Assembly (NCBI GenBank): GCA_034429745.1
Contig: DAOUFY010000108.1
Coordinates: 4,136 to 68,135 of the forward strand
Reading direction: 5' to 3'
DNA length: 64,000 bases
Source of the DNA: Anaerolineales bacterium
GTDB lineage: Bacteria > Chloroflexota > Anaerolineae > Anaerolineales > DRKV01
A program made the translations under genes and the position numbers. The notes below the pieces were generated by a model that ran no database searches, was not told the DNA's origin, and saw nothing but the letters and a program-made list of their open reading frames with translations. Below are positions 9,244 through 35,839 of this stretch, piece by piece; position 1 is the stretch's first letter, and every line of letters starts with the position of its first letter.

Positions 9244-9867
9244 CTACTTCAAATGTGGATCACCATAACCACAAACAAATAAATCAACTTCACCATCTGC
9301 GGCGTCTAAACCCCATGGATCACAGCCGCATTCGTGAATGTTTTTTGTGCAAGAGGAACATGTTTGTACTTGGCACCAGTCGTAGCACACTTGCGCTTCA
9401 TAAGCAGTTCGAAAACTTTTGCAAGTGATATTGGTCGCTTCACAATCGCACTCTCCCTTCACTGAGACCGGGGTAATTAATGCCGCAGCAGAAATACATT
9501 TTCCTTCCGGATCTTTTGTACATTCTGTAGGTTGTGAGGCTGGAATGTAAATTCGGGTAGGAGTTGGGATGAGGGTTGGAGTATTGGTTGGCAATGGTGT
9601 ACTGGTAGGAAGCGGGGTGTTGGTAGGAGTTGATGTGGGCAGCGGAGTATCCGTGGGAAACGCAGCTAGCGTTTCTGCTATGGCAGTTTCAGCAAAGCCG
9701 GCCGGCAAGGGTGTTTTGGCTGCTGAAAAGGCGCTGCCAATTGCTGAAATGATCAAATAAATGACCACTACGAACACGATGAGTGATATGCTGCCTATGG
9801 CTATCACCACCGCAATATTTTTCTGGTTTGTTTTTTGGCTTCTAATCATACTTGTTGTGTTCTCCAA
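9244..9867 (-). CDS. Membrane-anchored secreted protein: Pro/Thr-rich linker plus a Cys-rich Excalibur-like domain
   Basis: N-terminal TM segment (IAVVIAIGSISLIVFVVVIYLIISAIG) and a degenerate TPLPTSTP repeat linker. The C-terminal roughly 95 aa contain many Cys plus CKSFRTAYEAQ ... DPWGLDAADGE...C, which resembles the Excalibur Ca-binding motif. Confidence 0.55.
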   Translation of the reverse strand: MENTTSMIRSQKTNQKNIAVVIAIGSISLIVFVVVIYLIISAIGSAFSAAKTPLPAGFAETAIAETLAAFPTDTPLPTSTPTNTPLPTSTPLPTNTPTLIPTPTRIYIPASQPTECTKDPEGKCISAAALITPVSVKGECDCEATNITCKSFRTAYEAQVCYDWCQVQTCSSCTKNIHECGCDPWGLDAADGEVDLFVCGYGDPHLK

Positions 9868-10825: not shown

Positions 10826-11812
10826 ATGGGTGCCCAAGCTGTTGCTCTTTCAGTTTTGCCGAATAGGCATCTTCGTCCTCTTGACCGTAAGCGGGATTTG
10901 CATGCTGTGGCTGACCTCATTGAATTGTGTTTTGCAGATACATTGGATGAAGACGGGCGCAATTATATAAAACGCATGCGCTTTCTCTCTACTCAACAAA
11001 ACTCCGCTCTATCTGCATGGAATGATGAAAGCATGAGGATGGGGGGATATGTTTGGGAAGTTGATGGAAAGATTGTAGGGAATTTGAGTGTGCTTTCTTA
11101 TGCAGGTATTTTGTATCCTTTTGATTTGAAAGTGATGATGATTGCTAATGTAGCCGTGCATCCTCAATACAGGCGCCAAGGTATTGCTAGACAGTTGACC
11201 CAAAGAGCTGTAAATGATTTGAGGCGGCTGGAAAATGTGCCGATCTGGCTGCATGTGAGGGCTGAGAACCGTTCAGCTTATAACCTGTATGCTTCATTAG
11301 GGTTTGAAGAACGTTTTCGCCGCACGCTTTGGATTCATAAATCGCCTTTGGAGATGATTGATCTTGAAAAGCCACACACAACCGTTGCTGTAAAAGAACG
11401 AGCTAAAAAAGATTGGCAACAGCAAAAGGATTGGTTTCTACGGACATATCCGCCTGATATGTGGTGGTATTATGCAGTAACACCGCGCTTGCTTAAGCCC
11501 GGTTTCATTGGATTGATGTACAGTCTCCTATCAAACATTAGTGTATTTCAATGGTCGGTATTTTTAAAAAAGCAATTAATTGGTGTTGCAGCTTGGCAGC
11601 CTACTGCACATGCGGCAGATTATTGCTGGCTGATGGTCGAACAAGAGCATGAAGAACAAGCGTTATCCATTGTACTCCCTTATTTAGCTTCTAGGGTTGG
11701 CAGCCGGAAGCCCTTTATGATAGATTATCCGCTTCAAAGAGGGACGGAAGTGCTTCAAAGGCTAGGATTTCGTCCGCATCAAACGTTGATTTGGATGAGT
11801 TATCGTCAATAA
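10826..11812 (+). CDS. GNAT-family N-acetyltransferase with a C-terminal extension
   Basis: Acetyl-CoA binding motif VAVHPQYRRQGIARQL and LYASLGFE. The second half is of unknown function. Confidence 0.75.
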   Translation: MGAQAVALSVLPNRHLRPLDRKRDLHAVADLIELCFADTLDEDGRNYIKRMRFLSTQQNSALSAWNDESMRMGGYVWEVDGKIVGNLSVLSYAGILYPFDLKVMMIANVAVHPQYRRQGIARQLTQRAVNDLRRLENVPIWLHVRAENRSAYNLYASLGFEERFRRTLWIHKSPLEMIDLEKPHTTVAVKERAKKDWQQQKDWFLRTYPPDMWWYYAVTPRLLKPGFIGLMYSLLSNISVFQWSVFLKKQLIGVAAWQPTAHAADYCWLMVEQEHEEQALSIVLPYLASRVGSRKPFMIDYPLQRGTEVLQRLGFRPHQTLIWMSYRQ

Positions 11813-11853
11813 TTGAATAGAGAGAAAAGGGGAAAAAAATTTTTTATCATCTC

Positions 11854-11882
11854 TTGACAAGCTGAGCAGAAAAACATATAAT
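11854..11882 (+). promoter_or_regulatory. Consensus sigma-70 promoter for tRNA-Asn
   Basis: TTGACA (11854-11859), an exact 17-nt spacer, then TATAAT (11877-11882). The tRNA starts 14 nt downstream. Confidence 0.7.
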
Positions 11883-11895
11883 CAGTATGGATTGT

Positions 11896-11968
11896 TCCTC
11901 GGTAGGTCAATCGGCAGAGCAATCGGCTGTTAACCGATGGGTTGCAGGTTCGAGTCCTGCCCGGGGAG
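11896..11968 (+). tRNA. tRNA-Asn (anticodon GTT)
   Basis: Hand-folded cloverleaf. The acceptor stem is UCCUCGG/CCGGGGA with one U-G pair. The anticodon arm is AUCGG-CUGUUAA-CCGAU and the T arm is GCAGG-UUCGAGU-CCUGC. The D stem GGUC/GAGC has a G11-G24 mismatch. No CCA is encoded. Confidence 0.85.
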
Positions 11969-11977
11969 CTGATCTTT

Positions 11978-12035
11978 ATGCCCTCAACGTCAGATGACCA
12001 ATTGCCAAAAATTGATGTAGAGGGCATTTTTATTT
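11978..12035 (+). terminator. Putative terminator after tRNA-Asn
   Basis: ATGCCCTC (11978-11985) pairs with GAGGGCAT (12020-12027) across a long, partly paired loop, followed by TTTTATTT. Confidence 0.5.
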
Positions 12036-12049
12036 AAGAAGTAAAGGTT

Positions 12050-12772
12050 ATGAGCAGTATTCCAAGTGAAAAGAAAGTCATTATTGTTGATCCTGACCCA
12101 AAATATGGGAATCTTATCAGTCAGATATTAAAAGGGGAAGGTTTTACACCTATCGTTGTACAGAAAGGTGAAAAAGCCCTCCGAATTGCTGCAGATGAGG
12201 GCCTATATTTAACCATCACCGAAATAAATCTTTTAGGTGAGATTGATGGTTACGAGCTGGCGCGCCGAATTCGTACATTTTCTGAAATGCCAATACTCTT
12301 TGTTTCCGCTCAGGATGAAACGCAAGCTGTCTTATGGGCTTTTGAGTCTGGGGCAGATGATTTTATTACAAAACCATTTGATGCCAGAGTGCTGATAGCG
12401 CGTATAAAAGCGCATTTGAAGAGGAGCAGCGGAACGAGTGTTCAGGCAACTGAATTGACTTTTCAGCATATTACTATTCATTTAGCAACTCGGCAGGTAA
12501 CTGCTGATGATCAGCTGGTCTATCTCACTGAGACGGAATACAATCTTTTGTTGGAGTTAGCAAAGAATCACGATCGAGTTTTGACACATGAATATTTATT
12601 GAATGCTGTATGGGGTAATGCTTATAAAGACGAAGTAAATTATTTGCGCTCATACGTACACAATCTAAGACGCAAGCTGGAACGAGACCCAGCAAACCCG
12701 CAGCTGATACTCAGCCGCATGGGAGTGGGTTATATGCTTGTTTCTACTGCGCCAGCCGATGGAGGAGGTTGA
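12050..12772 (+). CDS. OmpR/KdpE-like response regulator with an atypical receiver (Glu at the phospho-acceptor position)
   Basis: Receiver plus winged-helix domain (C-terminus LRSYVHNLRRKLERDPANPQLILSRMGVGYML). The end of beta-3 reads YLTITEINLLGEIDG, so Glu replaces the conserved Asp. The N-terminal acidic pair reads VDPDP. The conserved S (FVSA) and K (TKPF) are retained. Confidence 0.85.
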   Translation: MSSIPSEKKVIIVDPDPKYGNLISQILKGEGFTPIVVQKGEKALRIAADEGLYLTITEINLLGEIDGYELARRIRTFSEMPILFVSAQDETQAVLWAFESGADDFITKPFDARVLIARIKAHLKRSSGTSVQATELTFQHITIHLATRQVTADDQLVYLTETEYNLLLELAKNHDRVLTHEYLLNAVWGNAYKDEVNYLRSYVHNLRRKLERDPANPQLILSRMGVGYMLVSTAPADGGG

Positions 12773-12776
12773 TTTT

Positions 12777-14066
12777 ATGCTACCTGGAACTACAGTAAAC
12801 CTGTTTGAAATGGCACAAAAGCAATTTGATCGGATAGCAGATATGCTTGGGCTGGATCAACCCACACGTGATTTTTTGCGTCAGCCAATGCGCGAGACTC
12901 AATTTAGTTTACCAGTGTTTCTTGATAATGGAGATACAGTGGTTTTGCGCGGGCATCATATTCAGCACAATGACAGCCGCGGTCCAACCAAGGGCGGAAT
13001 ACGTTTTCATCCACAAGAAACAGTGGATACAATTCGCGCCTTGGCGATGTGGATGACGTGGAAATGTGCAATTGCCAATTTGCCATTAGGAGGCAGCAGC
13101 AGTGGGGTAGCCTGCGATCCGCATAGCTTAAGCCCGATGGAAATGGAAAGAGTATGTCGCGGTTTTATGCGTAAGTTAGCTCATTTTGTCAATCCACAAG
13201 GGGATATCTTAGGACCTGATATTATGGTGGGCCCTCAGCAACTTTTGTGGATGCTGGATGAATATGAGGTTATTCACGGCAGGAAACAGCCAGGTGTGAT
13301 TACAGGCAAGCCAATCCACCATGCCGGCTCTAAAGGTAGCAAGGAAGCCCCAGGCTTTGGGGTTATGATCACAGTGCGCGAAGCTTTGAAGGATATGGGC
13401 ATTCCTATCGAGCAGACCAAAGCGAGTATCCAAGGCTTTGGCATGGTTGGCAGACATGCTGCTCAACTTTACAGCCAAATGGGCGGCAAAGTTGTCTGTG
13501 TAGCTTGCTGGAATCATGATGATCATACAGCGTATGCTTTTTATCATAAAGAAGGGTTGGATATTGGACGATTGATTGCTATAACAGACGCGTATGGCGA
13601 AATAGATAAAAGAAAAGCAATTGAAATGGGATATGAATGTCTGCCGGGTGAATCTTGGATTGAGCAAGATGTAGATATTTTGGTTCCAGCTGCCCTTGAG
13701 AACCAGATTCGGCACGATAATATCGAGCGCATCAGCATGCGCGTGAAAATTATAGCCGAAGCAGCTAGCGGACCAACAGATCCGGATGTTGATCCTCTAC
13801 TGCAGGAGAGAGGTATTGTAATTATCCCCGACATATTAGCCAATTGCGGCGGAGAGGTATGCAGTTATTTTGAGCAAGTGCAGAGCAATATGAATTATTA
13901 TTGGAGCCAAGATGAGATTCTTAGCAGGCTGGATTCAATTATGACTTCAGCTTACATAGATGTGAGCAAATTTGCTCATGAAAATCAATTGCAGCTGCGC
14001 GAGGCTGCTTATTTATTGGCAGTTGAGCGGGTGGCGCGGGCTTGCCATGAACGCGGCTGGATATAG
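12777..14066 (+). CDS. Glu/Leu/Phe/Val-dehydrogenase family paralogue with a substituted catalytic motif (GDH-like, probably non-canonical)
   Basis: GDH motifs GPTKGGIRFH, MTWKCA and GFGMVG (Rossmann) are present, but the Gly-rich catalytic turn reads LPLGGSSSGVACDP instead of GG[GA]KGG. I prefer the ATG at 12777, 8 nt after GGAGGAGG, over the tracked 12738 start, which overlaps the upstream gene. Confidence 0.85.
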   Translation: MLPGTTVNLFEMAQKQFDRIADMLGLDQPTRDFLRQPMRETQFSLPVFLDNGDTVVLRGHHIQHNDSRGPTKGGIRFHPQETVDTIRALAMWMTWKCAIANLPLGGSSSGVACDPHSLSPMEMERVCRGFMRKLAHFVNPQGDILGPDIMVGPQQLLWMLDEYEVIHGRKQPGVITGKPIHHAGSKGSKEAPGFGVMITVREALKDMGIPIEQTKASIQGFGMVGRHAAQLYSQMGGKVVCVACWNHDDHTAYAFYHKEGLDIGRLIAITDAYGEIDKRKAIEMGYECLPGESWIEQDVDILVPAALENQIRHDNIERISMRVKIIAEAASGPTDPDVDPLLQERGIVIIPDILANCGGEVCSYFEQVQSNMNYYWSQDEILSRLDSIMTSAYIDVSKFAHENQLQLREAAYLLAVERVARACHERGWI

Positions 14067-14078
14067 CCATCTTGTTAA

Positions 14079-15812
14079 ATGTTAACCATAGCACCGAATT
14101 TTCATCTCATTACTCTACGCAAAGGATCTCATAAAACTCAAGCTTTGCTGGAAGGACAAGAAGAATTGGGCGGCAAAGCTCATGGATTGCTTTCGGTTCG
14201 ACATGTGTTGGAGGATCTCCGCCCTCAATTTTTGTCTCAATTGATGCTTGATATACCCAAGCTGACTGTGTTGGGGACAAGTGTGTTTGAAGCATTTATA
14301 GAACGCAACAATTTGCTCGGGATTGCTCTATCGAAATCATCTGACGACCGTATTGCTAACGCGTTTTTGCGAGCAGATATGCCCTTTGAGGTACTGGGAG
14401 AACTGCATAATTTGGTAGAGAATTGGAAAACGCCTCTAGCTATACGCTCTTCCGGCTTGCTGGAAGATACAACCCGCCGACCTTTTGCTGGTGTATATGT
14501 AACAAAGATGATTCCCAATAATCAAGCGAATATCAATGTGCGCTTGCAAAAATTGCTTGAGGCAGTGAAGTTCGTTTGGGCATCTACTTATTTCAAAATT
14601 GCTAAGGATTACTGTAAAGCCACACAACTTGGCATTGAAAGCGAAAAGATGGCAGTCATTATTCAAGAGGTGATTGGCAGAAAACATGGGTCGCGTTTTT
14701 ACCCTGATCTCTCCGGAGTTGCTCGTTCTTATAATTTTTATCCATTCCCACCTGCTAAAACCGAGGATGGAGTCGTCAATTTGGCATTGGGGTTGGGAAA
14801 GACCATTGTTGATGGAGGAAAAAGTTGGATTTATTCGCCTGCATATCCGCATCACCCACCGCCATTTTCTTCTGTTCAAGAACTGCTGGATAAGACTCAG
14901 ACCCATTTTTGGGCAATTAATTTAGGTGAACCGCCGCAGTATGATCCTCTTAAAGAAGCAGAATTTATGCAGCGTGATCATCTTATGACAGCAGATAAAG
15001 ATAGGGTTCTGGCGCTGCTTGCCTCAACATATGATCCGCAGTCAGAACGGGTGAGCATGGGAACTTCAGAAAGAGGACCTAGAATATTGAATTTCGCTCC
15101 CTTGATCACCATGAAAGAGATACCGTTTAATGAGTTGTTGATCAACCTTATGAAGAAGTGTGAGAGTGAGTTTGGCATGCCGGTAGAGATTGAGTTTGCA
15201 GCGACTTTTGAGCCTAATCGGTTTGGTTTCTTGCAAGTTCGCCCAATGGCTATGCCGCGTGGTGATGTGAAAGTTTCAACTAGCGAATTGGCAGGGGATA
15301 ATGTACTCGTCGCTTCGGATGTGGTGCTTGGCAATGGAGTCATTGATGAGATTCAGGACGTGGTGTATGTCATACCAGAGCGTTTTGATCTGAAATATAC
15401 GAAGGATATAGCTGTTGAGCTTGAAGAACACAACAATGCTTTGCTTAGCCTTCAGCGCCCTTATGTGCTTATTGTCTTTGGCAGACTTGGTACATTGGAT
15501 CCATGGCTTGGGATACCCGTGGCTTGGGGGCAAATATGCGGGGCAAAGGTGATAGTAGAAGCTACTCAGAGTAATGTGAGGGTTGAATTAAGTCAAGGTT
15601 CACATTACTTCCATAATATCATCAATTTGGGGGTACTTCATTTTTCCATACCCTTCACAAAACCTTATCATATTCGCTGGGATTGGTTGAAAGAACAGCC
15701 GCTGATTGCAGAAAAAGAATACACCCGGCATGTCTGTTTTAAATCACCTTTGCTGGTTAAAGTTGATGGCCGCAGTGGGCGAGGAGTGATCTTACGCACT
15801 TCTTTAGGTTAA
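14079..15812 (+). CDS. PEP/pyruvate-binding (PPDK N-terminal ATP-grasp) domain protein without a phosphohistidine swivel domain
   Basis: GGKAHGL ... LAIRSSGLLED ... FAGVY, typical of the PPDK_N nucleotide-binding domain. No GGxTSHAAI-type mobile His motif was seen. The C-terminal roughly 200 aa are uncharacterised. Confidence 0.8.
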   Translation: MLTIAPNFHLITLRKGSHKTQALLEGQEELGGKAHGLLSVRHVLEDLRPQFLSQLMLDIPKLTVLGTSVFEAFIERNNLLGIALSKSSDDRIANAFLRADMPFEVLGELHNLVENWKTPLAIRSSGLLEDTTRRPFAGVYVTKMIPNNQANINVRLQKLLEAVKFVWASTYFKIAKDYCKATQLGIESEKMAVIIQEVIGRKHGSRFYPDLSGVARSYNFYPFPPAKTEDGVVNLALGLGKTIVDGGKSWIYSPAYPHHPPPFSSVQELLDKTQTHFWAINLGEPPQYDPLKEAEFMQRDHLMTADKDRVLALLASTYDPQSERVSMGTSERGPRILNFAPLITMKEIPFNELLINLMKKCESEFGMPVEIEFAATFEPNRFGFLQVRPMAMPRGDVKVSTSELAGDNVLVASDVVLGNGVIDEIQDVVYVIPERFDLKYTKDIAVELEEHNNALLSLQRPYVLIVFGRLGTLDPWLGIPVAWGQICGAKVIVEATQSNVRVELSQGSHYFHNIINLGVLHFSIPFTKPYHIRWDWLKEQPLIAEKEYTRHVCFKSPLLVKVDGRSGRGVILRTSLG

Positions 15813-15857
15813 GGTAAAAATTTCATTTACCTTATTTCCCTTATTATTGTTTTTTTG
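15811..15857 (+). terminator. Putative terminator ending the RR/GDH-like/PPDK_N operon
   Basis: AAGGTAAA (15811-15818) / TTTACCTT (15826-15833) form a perfect 8-bp stem, followed by a T-rich tail ending in T7. Confidence 0.5.
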
Positions 15858-15902
15858 ATGAAATCTTGATACTATTGGCGCAATTTTGATGATATCTTAA
15901 TA
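15853..15902 (+). promoter_or_regulatory. Direct repeat pair upstream of gdhA (candidate operator)
   Basis: TTTTGATGAAATCTTGATA (15853-15871) and TTTTGATGATATCTTAATA (15884-15902) match at 17 of 19 positions. They are 31 bp apart start to start and lie about 60-110 nt upstream of the gdhA ATG. Confidence 0.35.
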
Positions 15903-15959
15903 GTTCTTGTGTTATAAAGAACCTATCTAAACTATATTGACTTAAGGAGGTTTTAGGTT

Positions 15960-30280: not shown

Positions 30281-33200
30281 ATGGATGATGATCAGAATAT
30301 TGCTTTTCATATTGTAGGTATTGGAGCCTCAGCAGGGGGATTAGAAGCGTTAGAGAAATTTTTCAGCCATGTACCCGAGAACAGCGACTTAGCGTTTGTT
30401 GTAGTACAGCACCTTTCGCCGGATTATAAAAGCTTAATGGGAGAGCTGCTTTCAAAATGGACTCCGCTTCCTATACATGTGGCACAGGATGGGATGGAAT
30501 TACAGCCCAACCATGTATATTTAATACCGCGCAATAAAAACCTCACGGTTTTTCATCAAAAATTGTTTTTAGCTGAACGCGATCAGGATCAGCTTAATTT
30601 GCCGATCGATATATTTCTTCAATCAATGGCTGAAGATTTAGGGGAAAAAGCGATCGCTGTCATCCTTTCTGGAACAGGCAGTGATGGAACGCGCGGCATT
30701 CGTTTTATTAAAGAACAAGGGGGAATGGTAATGGCGCAGGACCCGAAAACGGCAAAGTTTGACGGTATGCCCCGCAGTGCTATTTCAACTCAGCTCGTAG
30801 ATTATATTCTGCCTCCCGAGCAAATGCCGCGTGAAATATTGAATTATGTTCAGCACCCTTGTTTGACGGGGGATTCCTCTTTAAGGGTGGTATTGTCCGG
30901 CGATGAGGATACGCTTTCGAAAATTTTTGCACTTCTGCGCAGCCAAAGTGGGGTGGATTTTACATATTACAAGCAGAATACGATGGTACGCCGCATTGAA
31001 CGACGGATGAGTATCAATCAGATAAAAAAGATAGGAGATTATCTGCATTACTTATATGAAAACCCGATAGAATTGAACCTGTTGTTTAAGGAGTTGTTAA
31101 TCGGTGTTACTGGGTTTTTCCGAGATCCAGAAGCATTTGATGTGATCAGGAAAAGAGTATTGCCTCAAATTTTTGAAGGCAAGGATCGCGGTGATCAAAT
31201 TCGCGTTTGGGTGGCAGGCTGCTCTACGGGAGAAGAAGCATATTCGCTGGCGATTCTGCTGAGTGATTATATGGAAAAGACCGCGAAATTCCTTGATGTG
31301 AAAGTATTTGCTACCGATTTAGATAAAGATGCATTGGAACAAGCCGGCAAAGGAATATATTCAGAAAGCATTGTTGCAGATATACCAAAGGAATATTTTC
31401 ACAATTACTTTGTACGGCGCGGCGATAGCTATGAAATATTGCGCCGGGTACGCGAGATGGTGATTTTTGCTCAGCAAAATATCATTGATGACCCGCCTTT
31501 TTCAAAGATTGACTTAATTTCCTGCCGAAATGTGCTGATTTATTTGCAGCCTGTGCTCCAAAAGAAAGTGCTTGATGCGTTTCAGTTCTCGCTTAATCCA
31601 GGAGGTTTTCTGTTTTTGGGAACAAGTGAAACCGTTGGGGATATGGGGGACTTTTTTACGAGTTTTGATAATAAATGGAAGATATATCAATATAAAGGTG
31701 GTTTGCGCGGGCATTTGAACGGCAGTGTTATTGCACGTACGATGGGGGACTATCCTTCGACGCGCTTAGCGCCGTACCGCCGCGGCCGTTTTGGTGATGG
31801 AAAACTAGTCGGCGAGGATATGTATCGCTACCTCATTGAGATGTTTTTACCTCCTACTGTTATTATTGATGAGCAAAGGCAGCTATTGCATGCTTTTGGC
31901 AATGTGGATCAATTTTTGCAGGTACCTTCAGGTGGACGAGTAAGTTTGGATTTGTTAAAGATGGTTCGCGAGGGCTTATCTATTCCTTTAAGCACAGCTA
32001 TCCATAAAGTGCTTAAAGACGATCAAGAAGATATTTTGTATAAAAATGTTGCCTTAAGTGAAAAACTGGTCTCTTCCTCTGGGGAAGAGGAAACAGAGGT
32101 AACGTGGATTGATATTTTTGTGAAACCTCTACGCGACCCCGTAACGAAGCAAAAGCAAATTCTTGTTCAGTTTCGCAAAGCACAAACTCAGGAGGAATTA
32201 TCAAAACACGTCGAAACTTTTGATGCAGATGTGAACGCGCTGCAGCGGATTGCTGATCTGGAGCAGGAATTGCAGTTCACCCGCGAATCGCTTCAGGCTA
32301 CTGTTGAGGAATTGGAAACTTCCAATGAGGAGCTGCAAGCGACTAATGAGGAATTGTTGGCTGCGAATGAGGAACTGCAGAGCACCAATGAAGAGCTGCA
32401 ATCCGTCAACGAAGAATTGGTTACTGTGAATGCAGAATATCAAGCGAAGATCCAGGAATTGATGGACTTAAACGCTGATCTAAATAACCTGTTCAGCAGT
32501 ACAGATGTTGGCACCATCTTCCTTGATCGCTTCCTGCGTATTCGTCGTTTTACTCCGGCAGTGCAGCATGAGATTCATCTACTGGAGCAGGATATTGGCC
32601 GCCCGTTGGCACATATTTCGCATAACTTCGTTGGCATTGATCTTGCTTACGAGGCTCAAAGTGTTATTAAGAGTTTATCCGTGAGAGAGATTGAGGTGCA
32701 GAGTGTTCAAAAGCGCTGGTACCTTATAAAATTCCACCCCTACTATACGCTGGATAGGAGACCGGATGGAGTGGTAATTTCACTGGTGGATATCACTGAT
32801 CTAAAGGCTAGCGACGAGCAGGCTATGATGCTTTCTGCTGCGCTTGAACAAAGCCCCTTGTTGAAATTATTAATTAAATTAGATGGCAAGATCATGTATA
32901 TTAACCCGCGAGTGAGAGAAATAACCTCTTATGTGCCAAAAGAAGTACTTGGGTTGTCATGGGAAGAATTTTTGCTCAACCGGTTGAAGGTGAAAGCGGA
33001 TGAACAGAATGCTCATGCCTTATTACAAGAAATTCAAAAAGCTTTTATAAGTGGTGGAATTTGGAAAGGAGATTTATTATACACCAACAAACAGGGGCAG
33101 CAATTTTGGGGTTATTCAATTTTCAGCACCATTTACGGAAAAGAAAGGCAGCCACTGTGTTACTTATGGATGATTGAGGATATCACCGATCGTAAAAAAG

Positions 33201-33979
33201 TGGAAGAGGAATTGCAGCAATCGGAAGCGAAATATGCCAAGCTGTTTTCAGAGATGACGCAAGGTGTGGTGTACCAAGATCAGGATGGGAAGATCATCTC
33301 TTTCAATCCGGCTGCGTTGGAGATTCTGGGATTATCTGAAGATGAGATATTGGGGCGCACCTCGTATGATCCGCGTTGGCAAGCGACTCATGAAGATGGC
33401 TCTGACTTTCCTGGCGATGAGCATCCGGCGATGATTGCCTTACAAAGCGGTAAAGATATCCGCGATATTGTGATGGGTGTTTTCAATCCCAAGGATAATC
33501 AGCATCATTGGATTTATGTCAGTTCTATGCCGCAATTCCGCCCAGGTGAAGATCGTCCATATCAAGTGATTTCCACTTTCACAGATGTAACGGCGTTATT
33601 TAAGGCGCAGAAGTCATTGAAAGAATTGAAAGAGCAACTGCTGGCGGTATTGGATACTTTTGAACTTCCCTTATGGATTGTAAATGACGAAGGGCAGATA
33701 CAAATATGCAATAAGAGCGCTTGCAGGACGTTTTTTGCTGGTCAGCAAGAGAGAGATATAGCAAACTGCATTGCATTCAATAAGTCAATAATCGAGTTGA
33801 TTCCAGCCGAAGGGCGTGAGGCATTTAACCGCTGTTTGCAGCAAGCATTACGGGGCGAGCCTTCTCAGTTATTGTTGCAAGGTCAAGGAATATCGTTGTT
33901 GTTTAAGCCTTTAATAACTTTTCAGGCTGCTGAGGCAAGCAGTGTGTTGATTGTAGGACAGGAACAGGGAAAAGAGTAA
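30281..33979 (+). CDS. CheB-like methylesterase / CheR-like methyltransferase fusion with a coiled coil and multiple PAS domains
   Basis: CheB_methylest motif ([13 protein letters not shown]), CheR SAM-binding motif ([28 protein letters not shown]), an EEL heptad coiled coil, then at least three PAS/PAC-like modules. There is no kinase core. Confidence 0.9.
32303..32446 (+). repeat. In-frame 21-bp periodic repeat encoding the heptad series xEELxxx
   Basis: Translates as [48 protein letters not shown]. The DNA shows imperfect AATGAGGA(A/G)(C/T)TG... units every 21 bp. Confidence 0.75.
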
Positions 33980-34009: not shown

Positions 34010-35839
34010 ATGGAGAGGGAAGGCAATTTGGATGATTTGAATGAATTGCGCCAACTGGCTGAACGCAAGGTCAAATCCGAAATTGACGTAAAAGGTGTAG
34101 AGACCATCGAGGATGCGCGCGTATTGCTGCATGAATTGCAGATTCATCAAATAGAACTGGAGATGCAAAATGAAGAATTGCGCACCACACGGCAGATGTT
34201 GGAGGAAGAACGCAACAAATACGCGGATTTGTATGATTTTGCACCGATAAGCTATTTTACTTTAAACCCAGAGGGGATTATTCTCGAGATAAATTTAAAT
34301 GGTTCGATGTTGTTGGGCAGGGAACGCAGGTATCTCATCTCAAAACCTTTCGTGTCTTATTTGGCGAACGAATCTCATCAAGTGTTTTTCCAAGCTTTGC
34401 ACAATGCAGCAGCAACAAATGAACCTCAAACATGTGAAGTGATCCTACGTGAAGCTTCTTCTCAATACCCAACATCGAAGCCATCGTTGGGTGAGAAAGT
34501 ATTTTTGCAATTGAAAATTTCTCCATACTTTAGTAAGGAAGCAGAAAGATTTGCGTTGCGCTGTGCTGCAACAGATATCAGCTTGCTAAAGCAGGCTCAA
34601 ATAAAAGTGGAATATGAATCCCGCGTTAATGAAGCCTTGGCAAAGTTGGCAGGAGGAATACTGGTCTCAGATTCTATCAATACTCTAGCTGATGAGGTGC
34701 TCAAAATAGCCCTCAGTCTAACGGACAGCTGCTATGGATTTGTAAGTTACATTGACCAAGAAAAAGGAGTGATGATCGCACCAACTTTAACCAAAGAAAT
34801 ATGGGCTACCTGCAATATACCCCAAAAACAATTTGTATTTGATAAATATGGTGGGCTATGGGGATGGGTAGCAAAGAACAAAGCACCTTTGTTAACTAAT
34901 CAACCGGCCGCCGATCCGCGTTCTGGGGGTGTGCCGGATGGCCATGTTCCCATTCATCGCTTTCTGGGGGTGCCGGTTGTGGCAGGTGATCAATTGTTAG
35001 GCATCATCGCCGTTGCCAATGCTAATCGGGAGTATCAAGTTCAAGATCAGGATACGTTAGGTAGAGTGGCGGATCTATATGCTGTTGCTATACAGCAGTT
35101 CCGTGCGGCTGACTTGTTGAAAAAGCGCACGCAAGAACTTATCCGCTCTAATCAAGAATTGGAAGAATTTGCTTATGTAGCTTCTCATGATTTGCAGGAG
35201 CCCCTGCGGAAAATACGCAGTTTCACCGAATTGCTGCAGAAGCAGCTATACGTTAATATAGATGAGCGTTCGCGTAAGTATATGGATTATGTTGTGGATG
35301 CTGCTCAGAGAATGCAATTGTTGATCAACGACCTGCTGGAGTACTCTCGTTTAGGAAGACTCGAAATAACCTATAAATCGGTGGATATGGAAGCCTTGTT
35401 TAACAAATTGATTTCAGACCTATCACATTTGATTGAGGAAAGCGGCGCAGTCATTACCCATGATCCGTTGCCGCAGATAAAAGCCAACCCGATACAGATG
35501 GAACGTTTGCTGCAAAATTTACTGACGAATGCCTTAAAGTTCCGTACAAGTGAACCGCCGCGGATTTACGTTACAGCCCATCAACAACAGGTTGAGGCAG
35601 CGCAAGGTGATGTCAATGAATGGGTATTTTCTGTCAAAGATAACGGAATTGGCATTCATCCGGATTATCATGAGCGGATCTTTCAACTCTTTCAACGATT
35701 GCATTCGCGGGAGGAATACTCGGGCAGCGGAATGGGGCTGGCAATTTGCAAAAAAATTGTTGAAAAACATGGGGGAAAGATTTGGGTTGAATCGCAAGAG
35801 GGTAAGGGGTCAACCTTTTACTTTACTATTCCCGCCTAA
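34010..35839 (+). CDS. PAS-GAF sensor histidine kinase, cytoplasmic
   Basis: N-terminal coil LHELQIHQIELEMQNEELRTT, a PAS module, a GAF-like module, an H-box (YVASHDLQEPLRKI), and HATPase boxes (LLTNALKF, DNGIGI, GSGMGLA). It starts 30 nt after the CheB/CheR gene. Confidence 0.9.
   Translation: MEREGNLDDLNELRQLAERKVKSEIDVKGVETIEDARVLLHELQIHQIELEMQNEELRTTRQMLEEERNKYADLYDFAPISYFTLNPEGIILEINLNGSMLLGRERRYLISKPFVSYLANESHQVFFQALHNAAATNEPQTCEVILREASSQYPTSKPSLGEKVFLQLKISPYFSKEAERFALRCAATDISLLKQAQIKVEYESRVNEALAKLAGGILVSDSINTLADEVLKIALSLTDSCYGFVSYIDQEKGVMIAPTLTKEIWATCNIPQKQFVFDKYGGLWGWVAKNKAPLLTNQPAADPRSGGVPDGHVPIHRFLGVPVVAGDQLLGIIAVANANREYQVQDQDTLGRVADLYAVAIQQFRAADLLKKRTQELIRSNQELEEFAYVASHDLQEPLRKIRSFTELLQKQLYVNIDERSRKYMDYVVDAAQRMQLLINDLLEYSRLGRLEITYKSVDMEALFNKLISDLSHLIEESGAVITHDPLPQIKANPIQMERLLQNLLTNALKFRTSEPPRIYVTAHQQQVEAAQGDVNEWVFSVKDNGIGIHPDYHERIFQLFQRLHSREEYSGSGMGLAICKKIVEKHGGKIWVESQEGKGSTFYFTIPA

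Follow-up and report, generated by a model that had tools for sequence, protein, structure and literature searches.

The subject of this analysis is a glutamate dehydrogenase (GDH) homologue without the catalytic lysine, here called pGDH, encoded in a 64,000-nucleotide stretch of an Anaerolineales bacterium genome (contig DAOUFY010000108.1, positions 4,136 to 68,135; hereafter the window). Its gene occupies 12777–14066 on the forward strand, specifies 429 amino acids, and was assigned from Pfam, phmmer, alignments and its homologues; the start codon is an ATG at 12777, preceded by GGAGGAGG. Immediately upstream on the same strand lies a gene for an OmpR-type response regulator (12050–12772; Pfam Response_reg and Trans_reg_C), whose stop codon ends 4 nt before the pGDH start. 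Downstream, after a gap of 13 nt, follows a forward-strand gene for a 577-aa ATP-grasp protein of the PPDK_N type (14079–15812), and after another 148 nt comes a canonical NADP-type gdhA (15960–17315, forward strand; 451 aa; Pfam, NCBIfam) carrying the motif LPMGGAKGG. This last gene had already been recognized in a preliminary description of the locus, and its product indeed lies above the NCBIfam NADP-GDH equivalog cut-off (729.5 bits vs. 536). pGDH itself contains both domains of the ELFV dehydrogenase superfamily, ELFV_dehydrog_N (PF02812, E 5e-45) and ELFV_dehydrog (PF00208, E 3e-59), with scores of 152.8 and 200.9 bits that exceed the cut-offs of 25.3 and 23.4, and it falls below every NCBIfam GDH equivalog cut-off (best 403.7 bits vs. 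750, NF040817). Because pGDH is only 28% identical to the neighboring GdhA, it is no recent copy of gdhA; the two belong to separate GDH subfamilies.

Consistent with the preliminary description, we found that the glycine-rich active-site loop of pGDH (13089–13106, forward strand) reads GGSSSG where GG[GAS]KGG is usual. Nucleotides 13080–13106, inside the pGDH open reading frame (ORF), are TTG CCA TTA GGA GGC AGC AGC AGT GGG and translate as LPLGGSSSG; translation, phmmer comparison with the Protein Data Bank (PDB) and a 110-sequence alignment agree that the catalytic lysine is missing. In the phmmer comparison, where the alignment to Thermotoga GDH is full-length (E ~1e-104), the pGDH segment nlplggsssg stands opposite nlpfgggkgg of Thermotoga GDH and dlpygggkgg of Pyrococcus GDH, which places Ser108 (13098–13100, forward strand) in the catalytic-Lys column. 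The alignment proposed earlier as a check of this column bears the assignment out: the position opposite Ser108 is Lys in 100% of the 110 Lys-bearing representatives aligned with pGDH by MAFFT, and likewise in all 58 Lys-bearing GDHs of the gene cluster described below. The residue replaced is the equivalent of K125 of Clostridium symbiosum GDH (CsGDH). Its absence is no sequencing accident, because a protein identical to pGDH is recorded from 7 contigs and 119 of the 120 closest homologues also lack the lysine.

Other parts of the active site are a mixture of retained and altered residues. pGDH keeps GPTKGG (K72), WKCA (K96), GPDI (D148), S363 and an intact GxGxxG (GFGMVG, residues 220–225), and reads EAASGP (S331) and SYFEQ (Q367), the motifs being present as they were first reported. 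The substitutions at conserved active-site positions are R61H, A146G, R188S, T192P, N223M (the Asn of GFGNVG), N331S and V360E, with G109 likewise altered (S109); all of these positions are 98–100% conserved in Lys-bearing relatives. T192 and N223, which vary within the Lys-less clade but are kept by every Lys-bearing cluster GDH, occupy what we take to be positions of nicotinamide contact in CsGDH. Measured against the CsGDH substrate positions (K89, K113, D165, A163, V377 and S380, with roles as summarised in bioRxiv 10.1101/2024.12.26.630402) and against the R205 and Asn (E-G-A-N-G-P) positions, K72, K96, D148 and S363 are present, and A146G (the A163 position), R188S, N331S and V360E are changed. 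The earlier description of substrate binding as intact thus goes too far for pGDH, in which R188, N331, V360, A146, T192 and N223 are altered beside the retained K72, K96, D148 and S363.

Three of the changes are specific to the sub-lineage of the window, as judged by alignment: Ser188 for the Arg at the position of bovine R211 and CsGDH R205 (13338–13340), Ser331 for the Asn of E[GA]ANGP (13767–13769), and Glu360 for the Val corresponding to CsGDH V377 in the substrate pocket (13854–13856), all on the forward strand. Arg at position 188 is kept in 95–100% of GDHs, and R188, N331 and V360 are kept at ~97% in the rest of the clade. R188S, N331S and V360E are fixed, and pGDH shares them with a 96%-identical relative (L094/L095). 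Altogether the window lineage departs from the clade consensus at 16 positions (clade median 4), and six of these are also at least 95% conserved in ordinary GDHs. No lysine has been gained, at the sequence level, in the active-site-lining segments of pGDH except E189K, which adjoins R188S when the pGDH translation is compared with the Thermotoga sequence; a compensating lysine might still come from another part of the fold or from an adjoining subunit. We thus conclude that pGDH is without the catalytic lysine and several further active-site residues.

The same condition is found throughout a clade of homologues. Among 5.8 billion proteins, the 120 best homologues are 62–100% identical to pGDH, 107 of them are exactly 429 aa long, and those with names come from Anaerolineae metagenome-assembled genomes (Anaerolinea thermolimosa, Levilinea, Leptolinea, Anaerolineaceae). 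Within the Lys-less members of this set, the loop is GGSSSG in 93, GGGSSG in 10, GGSMGG in 7, GGSSGG in 4, GGSSCG in 3 and GGSASG in 2. Whether such homologues form a clade with a common neighborhood had been posed as a question; the Ser-type proteins do so within the Anaerolineae, and the order Lys-less GDH, PPDK_N-only protein of 571–589 aa and 451-aa gdhA is kept in L001, L003–5, L011 and L096, on independent contigs with different flanks. Conservation in the clade is as high as in the Lys-bearing cluster GDHs, with a mean column conservation of 0.806 vs. 0.810. Ser108 and Ser109 are conserved at 93% and 89%, respectively, in the Ser-type clade, and K72, K96, D148, R188, N331, V360 and S363 are each 96–100% conserved among 117 Lys-less members, so most clade members probably still bind a dicarboxylate. 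The pGDH gene is under strong purifying selection: compared with the 96%-identical relative, its ratio of nonsynonymous to synonymous substitution (dN/dS) is 0.029 at dS 0.62, below the ratios of neighboring genes in the same comparison (response regulator, 0.12; ATP-grasp protein, 0.116; GNAT acetyltransferase, 0.19), and a decaying gene is therefore ruled out.

We then placed pGDH within its wider subfamily by a partner-alignment scan of one genome per GTDB species, which gave at least 589 loci; 80 were retrieved and analyzed, with gene content taken from ORF and BLASTP analysis and trees built by neighbor joining without support values. The 80 loci cover Anaerolineae, Dehalococcoidia, Calditrichota, Bacteroidota, Ignavibacteria, Zixibacteria, Planctomycetota, Acidobacteriota, Gemmatimonadota, Eisenbacteria, Krumholzibacteriota, Cloacimonadota, Spirochaetes and others. 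A four-gene cluster recurs across more than ten bacterial phyla (L013, L017–L090; e.g., L033 4589–11912 and L007 2207–9333), comprising a GDH of the same subfamily, 53–60% identical to pGDH; a 570-aa PPDK_N-like protein; a protein of ~1,055 aa (BIG) consisting of an N-terminal ~340 aa without an assigned domain, PPDK_N, the C-terminal domain that also ends the PPDK_N-like protein, and NTP_transf_2; and a phosphoesterase of the Metallophos type (MPE), encoded mostly on the opposite strand. The co-directional order of GDH followed by the PPDK_N-like gene, with gaps of 0–150 nt, is kept in every informative locus, and L001, L003–8 and L011–L090 show it wherever the upstream region is present. In most cases the BIG and MPE genes come after this pair. 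The PPDK_N-type ATP-grasp protein is thus the constant genomic partner of the subfamily to which pGDH belongs. All-against-all clustering of flanking ORFs in the fetched loci revealed no recurrent neighbor beyond the four core genes; the cluster corresponds to no Pfam, NCBIfam or PADLOC family, and a literature search on the cluster or on PF01326 together with GDH found no description of it.

In the neighbor-joining tree the cluster GDHs fall into a single clade apart from ordinary GDHs, with pGDH inside it. In the 58 cluster GDHs that have the lysine, all 13 tabulated active-site positions are 98–100% conserved, which implies that the GDH of the ancestral module is catalytically active. The Lys-less clade keeps 32 of 45 subfamily-signature positions at 80% or more; examples of signature residues are T85, H116, C127, M150, L157, E164, the W245 insertion, W294, Q367, N371, N373, D386 and T390. 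W367Q (SYFEQ) and a CW[DN]Q insertion after beta-B are traits of the whole subfamily, Lys-bearing members included, and SYFEQ cannot therefore be the drift that it was first taken for, the Gln being 100% conserved. As a side observation, His116 (13122–13124), eight residues past the catalytic-Lys position, is present in 100% of Lys-bearing cluster GDHs and 91% of the Lys-less clade, at a position that is mostly Lys in ordinary GDHs, and could serve as a site of contact or modification.

Loss of the catalytic lysine is not confined to the clade of the window. It has occurred in at least four lineages of the subfamily, with S, M, Q, T or N as the replacement: on the Anaerolineae branch (to S in the clade of the window, to M in L007/L008 and to Q in L014, with the Lys-bearing L006/P0119 basal), in a Holophagae/Thermoanaerobaculales pair (M; L087 and L090), in one Bacteroidales genome (T; L036) and in one Ignavibacteria genome (N; L052). 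Each Lys-less lineage has further substitutions at otherwise invariant active-site positions, and these differ from one lineage to the next (K72W in L087/L090; K96E in L011; K96R, N331D and V360A in L007; S363D and N223K in L036; A146Y and N331S in L014), T192 and N223 being hit most often. Such a pattern would be expected of abandoned catalysis and not of a new active site being built.

The Lys-less loci are associated with a canonical gdhA, found in the fetched flanks of 8 of 11 non-redundant Lys-less loci vs. 4 of 58 Lys-bearing loci (Fisher p 8e-6 by locus); a conservative collapse by lineage gives 4 of 6 vs. 3 of ~40 (Fisher p 0.003). Lys loss is thus recurrent and associated with an adjoining canonical gdhA. 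The Lys-bearing clusters with an adjoining gdhA (L064/L066, L076) look like an intermediate state. BIG and the phosphoesterase have been lost in the window's clade, and its M-type sister L007 keeps both. Two observations from the wider material may be recorded here. In L035 (12261–13642; a Candidatus Eisenbacteria genome with a Lys-bearing cluster), the canonical gdhA appears split over two or three frames, which may reflect a frameshifted pseudogene or an assembly error. Separately, ~12–15% of the 150 best 50%-identity representatives of pGDH-type GDH (P0121–P0270) are without the catalytic lysine, with M, Q, R, V, H, C, F, W, Y or I in its place and scattered over the tree. In one of them, P0183, the K89 position (GPALGG) and the Asn have been lost as well. 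Dead GDH paralogues thus seem to be widespread and under-recognized. Three other Lys-less representatives (P0221, P0152 and P0197) sit on contigs that are too short to show their gene neighborhood.

The ATP-grasp partner in the window has a Pfam PPDK_N domain (E 6e-34) and, besides Pfam, was characterized by PDB sequence search, alignments, AlphaFold2 modeling and Foldseek. Its ATP-binding motifs GGKA, IRSSGLLED, EIEFA and QVRP are intact, align to rifampin phosphotransferase in the PDB sequence search, and are invariant in 63 partner homologues. The AlphaFold2 model (predicted local distance difference test [pLDDT] 84.8, predicted TM-score 0.85) matches rifampin phosphotransferase (5HV1), phosphoenolpyruvate (PEP) synthase (2OLS) and pyruvate phosphate dikinase (PPDK; 1KBL) in Foldseek with E-values of 2e-14 to 1e-10. 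The protein is named by no NCBIfam or PADLOC family, and in the source annotation it is "hypothetical" or "PEP/pyruvate-binding domain-containing." Its final ~180 residues (398–577; 15270–15809, forward strand) form, by alignment and AlphaFold2, a conserved C-terminal domain with the invariant motifs GRLGxxDxWLGIPVxWGQ and SQGSHYFHN (H509, H512); this domain recurs in the BIG paralogue (GRWGSRGDIKLGV...FGTHFF). No Pfam match was found for this domain at E ≤10, and its model, built separately with a pLDDT of 86 (one of five models being good), has no PDB fold match in Foldseek (best E 0.1, TM <0.3). The domain could represent a novel fold or carry a phospho-His. We considered whether it is the PEP-utilizers swivel phospho-His domain (PF00391), for which there is a lead at the level of motifs only (SQGSH509YFHNIINLG compared with GGxTSHAAIVARELG, with L-G at +8/+9), and set this identification aside in view of the Pfam and Foldseek results. 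An affiliation with defense systems was likewise rejected: the PADLOC matches are to a generic nucleotidyltransferase and phosphoesterase only, in the BIG and MPE genes that are absent here, and the proteins of the window have no match.

Upstream of the response regulator, a consensus scan identified a candidate sigma-70-like promoter (TTGACA-17-TATAAT, 11854–11882, forward strand) that is the sole 12/12 match in 11700–17500 and a possible promoter of the operon. The junction between response regulator and GDH recurs in L007/L008, L011 and L094/L095, and is not found in L001 or L003. A multi-PAS histidine kinase gene (17346–20684, reverse strand; Pfam) converges with gdhA; it is not at the same position in L001 and L003 and is therefore no conserved part of the cassette. 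The window also contains, upstream of the operon at 10826–11812, a gene for a 328-aa GNAT acetyltransferase. L001/L002 and L094 have a GNAT gene upstream as well, so that the synteny may be loosely conserved; metabolic enzymes are known to be regulated by protein acetylation, among other means. Farther out are a 207-aa protein (9244–9867, reverse strand) with an N-terminal membrane segment, a Pro/Thr-rich repeat (TPTNTPLPTSTPLPTNTP) and a Cys-rich C-terminus, and a 1,232-aa fusion of CheB methylesterase, CheR methyltransferase and at least three PAS domains (30281–33979), followed by a GAF histidine kinase (34010–35839).

Taken together, these observations are best explained if pGDH is a catalytically dead GDH retained as a non-catalytic partner of the ATP-grasp protein that probably still binds a ligand, while the GDH reaction is left to gdhA; we give this explanation a probability of roughly 0.55. 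pGDH is predicted to have no GDH activity, and it would be kept for a function exercised with the ATP-grasp protein, whether as scaffold, sensor or target. We infer that this function relates to GdhA or to the metabolism of glutamate and 2-oxoglutarate. The suggestion of a pseudoenzyme/sensor or a changed reaction, made when the gene was first described, was the right class of idea for a conserved protein under strong selection, but it missed the constant PPDK_N-type ATP-grasp partner.

The comparisons give the following history. The ancestral module contained an active subfamily GDH, two PPDK_N-type ATP-grasp proteins (one with a nucleotidyltransferase domain) and a metallophosphoesterase. 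A canonical gdhA was recruited beside this module on the Anaerolineae branch; the module's own GDH, now redundant, then lost its catalytic lysine, and other active-site residues drifted. The window's clade also lost BIG and the phosphoesterase, leaving pGDH, the ATP-grasp protein and gdhA. This sequence of gdhA recruitment, redundancy, Lys loss and retention with the ATP-grasp protein is the most economical reading of the comparisons. Because the fold, the subfamily surface and, in most of the clade, the dicarboxylate residues are kept, pGDH could plausibly report glutamate/2-oxoglutarate status to its ATP-dependent partner or serve as its scaffold or target, and the two together might modulate GdhA or nitrogen/carbon flux.

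Several points weigh against this explanation. The retention of Ser108 at 93% in the Ser-type clade and the very low dN/dS would fit a new catalytic role too. pGDH has itself lost three ligand-binding residues that other clade members keep, which makes a glutamate/2-oxoglutarate sensor role weaker for the window's protein. Adjoining gdhA is not seen in the available sequence of the Lys-less L014, L036 and possibly L090, and the association statistics cover 80 loci out of at least 589 and depend on a neighbor-joining tree without support values. No fusion of GDH with PPDK_N was found among six long GDH homologues scanned. Finally, a role of the partner as a kinase acting on GdhA is conjecture, given a C-terminal domain without Pfam or PDB fold match.

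Alternatively, pGDH could be a neofunctionalized enzyme that still binds a dinucleotide together with a 2-oxo or amino dicarboxylate and runs a Lys-independent reaction, forming a small pathway with its partner beside gdhA; such a reaction might be the simple reduction of the 2-oxoglutarate carbonyl, for example, or the conversion of some phosphorylated intermediate that the ATP-grasp protein supplies. The very strong purifying selection (dN/dS 0.029), the non-random occupancy of Ser108 and Ser109, the retention of K72, K96, D148, S363 and GxGxxG, and the intact ATP-binding motifs of the partner would all be accounted for. However, independent lineages have replaced the lysine differently (S, M, Q, T, N), and their secondary changes (K72W, K96E/R, S363D, N331D/S, V360A/E) are lineage-specific and do not converge on a new site, while T192 and N223, presumably the nicotinamide positions, are those most often lost. 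The accompanying canonical gdhA further suggests that a lost activity was replaced and not that a new one was added. We therefore regard neofunctionalization as unlikely.

A different possibility is that pGDH is a regulatory subunit of the Thermus type, forming a mixed hexamer with GdhA and tuning its activity, with the ATP-grasp protein as an accessory. The GdhA4-GdhB2 heterohexamer of Thermus thermophilus is a precedent, and gdhA is conserved beside pGDH in the clade. A mixed hexamer is made less likely by the 28% identity of pGDH and GdhA, which belong to different subfamilies (Thermotoga/Pyrococcus type vs. the PRK09414 NADP-GDH model); moreover, the older and more constant partner of the subfamily is the PPDK_N-like protein and not gdhA. 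pGDH also resembles the catalytic GdhB of Thermus (320 bits) more than it does the inactive GdhA (239 bits). We consider this arrangement quite unlikely. That pGDH is a functionless relic, made redundant by gdhA and heading for loss, would be in keeping with its missing catalytic lysine and other active-site residues, its 16 deviations from the clade consensus and the prior disappearance of BIG and the phosphoesterase, but is contradicted by a dN/dS below that of flanking genes, by intact ORFs, nearly all of 429 aa, in over 100 distinct homologues with identities as low as 62%, and by lineage-specific substitutions that are fixed and common to the 96%-identical relative, and is very improbable.

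Retention of pGDH as a non-catalytic partner of the ATP-grasp protein would make the locus a natural experiment on which parts of a GDH are still selected once catalysis is gone, and the locus points to an uncharacterized multi-phylum cluster tying GDH to PPDK-type ATP-grasp proteins. If the pair does regulate GdhA, it would represent a new nitrogen-status control module in the Chloroflexota, which are abundant in anaerobic digesters and sediments.

Comparison with known systems sets the locus in context. The best matches to pGDH, over the full length, are the hexameric GDHs of Thermotoga, Pyrococcus and Bacillus (2TMG, 1GTM, 1EUZ; E 4e-104 to 1e-97), which share with it both Pfam domains, GPxKGG, WK, the catalytic Asp and GxGxxG; pGDH differs from them in the replacement of Lys by Ser, in the changes at R61, G109, A146, R188, T192, N223, N331 and V360, and in the CW[DN]Q insertion and W367Q. 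The partner has in common with the PEP-utilizing dikinases and phosphotransferases (rifampin phosphotransferase, PEP synthase, PPDK) the ATP-grasp domain and the motifs GGK, RSS..ED, E.E and Q.RP, but, unlike them, it has no recognizable swivel phospho-His domain or acceptor-binding domain and carries the 180-aa C-terminal domain instead. By analogy, GlnE/GlnD-PII control of glutamine synthetase also pairs a central enzyme of nitrogen assimilation with proteins of nucleotidyltransferase and phosphoesterase type, for which the ancestral cluster has BIG (NTP_transf_2) and Metallophos. A bolder proposal is conceivable, in which the pGDH/ATP-grasp pair and the ancestral cluster would be an ATP-dependent system for controlling or modifying GDH, a counterpart of GlnE/GlnD-PII, with the Anaerolineae pGDH as a dedicated, non-catalytic metabolite sensor or adaptor steering the ATP-grasp protein to GdhA; we advance it tentatively and think it improbable. 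No homology to GlnE/GlnD-PII was demonstrated beyond the generic Pol-beta nucleotidyltransferase fold, and the cassette in the window is without the nucleotidyltransferase and phosphoesterase genes.

The closest precedent for pGDH is the catalytically inactive GdhA of T. thermophilus, which regulates GdhB together with an inactive homologue of adenine phosphoribosyltransferase (PMC9570180; bioRxiv 10.1101/2025.10.31.685773); in structure 3AOE, chain E is GdhA and chain A is GdhB (PMC9570180). Both proteins have a GDH fold, are inactive (pGDH by prediction) and are encoded beside an active GDH gene, each being a pseudoenzyme (again by prediction for pGDH) that stems from the kind of enzyme it accompanies, yet they arose independently. 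pGDH scores 238.7 bits against chain E (E 8e-70) and 320.6 bits against chain A (E 1e-94), and, being nearer to GdhB, is no orthologue of Thermus GdhA; chain 3AOE_E was absent from the PDB matches of a further Lys-less representative. The Thermus system, in which the phosphoribosyltransferase homologue is an AMP sensor, is without a PPDK_N-type ATP-grasp protein, the constant partner of pGDH, and, unlike Thermus GdhA and GdhB, pGDH adjoins an active GDH of another subfamily. pGDH would thus join Thermus GdhA as another GDH that has become a pseudoenzyme, of separate origin and far wider distribution, with more than 100 distinct Anaerolineae homologues and a loss of the lysine that recurs in other phyla.

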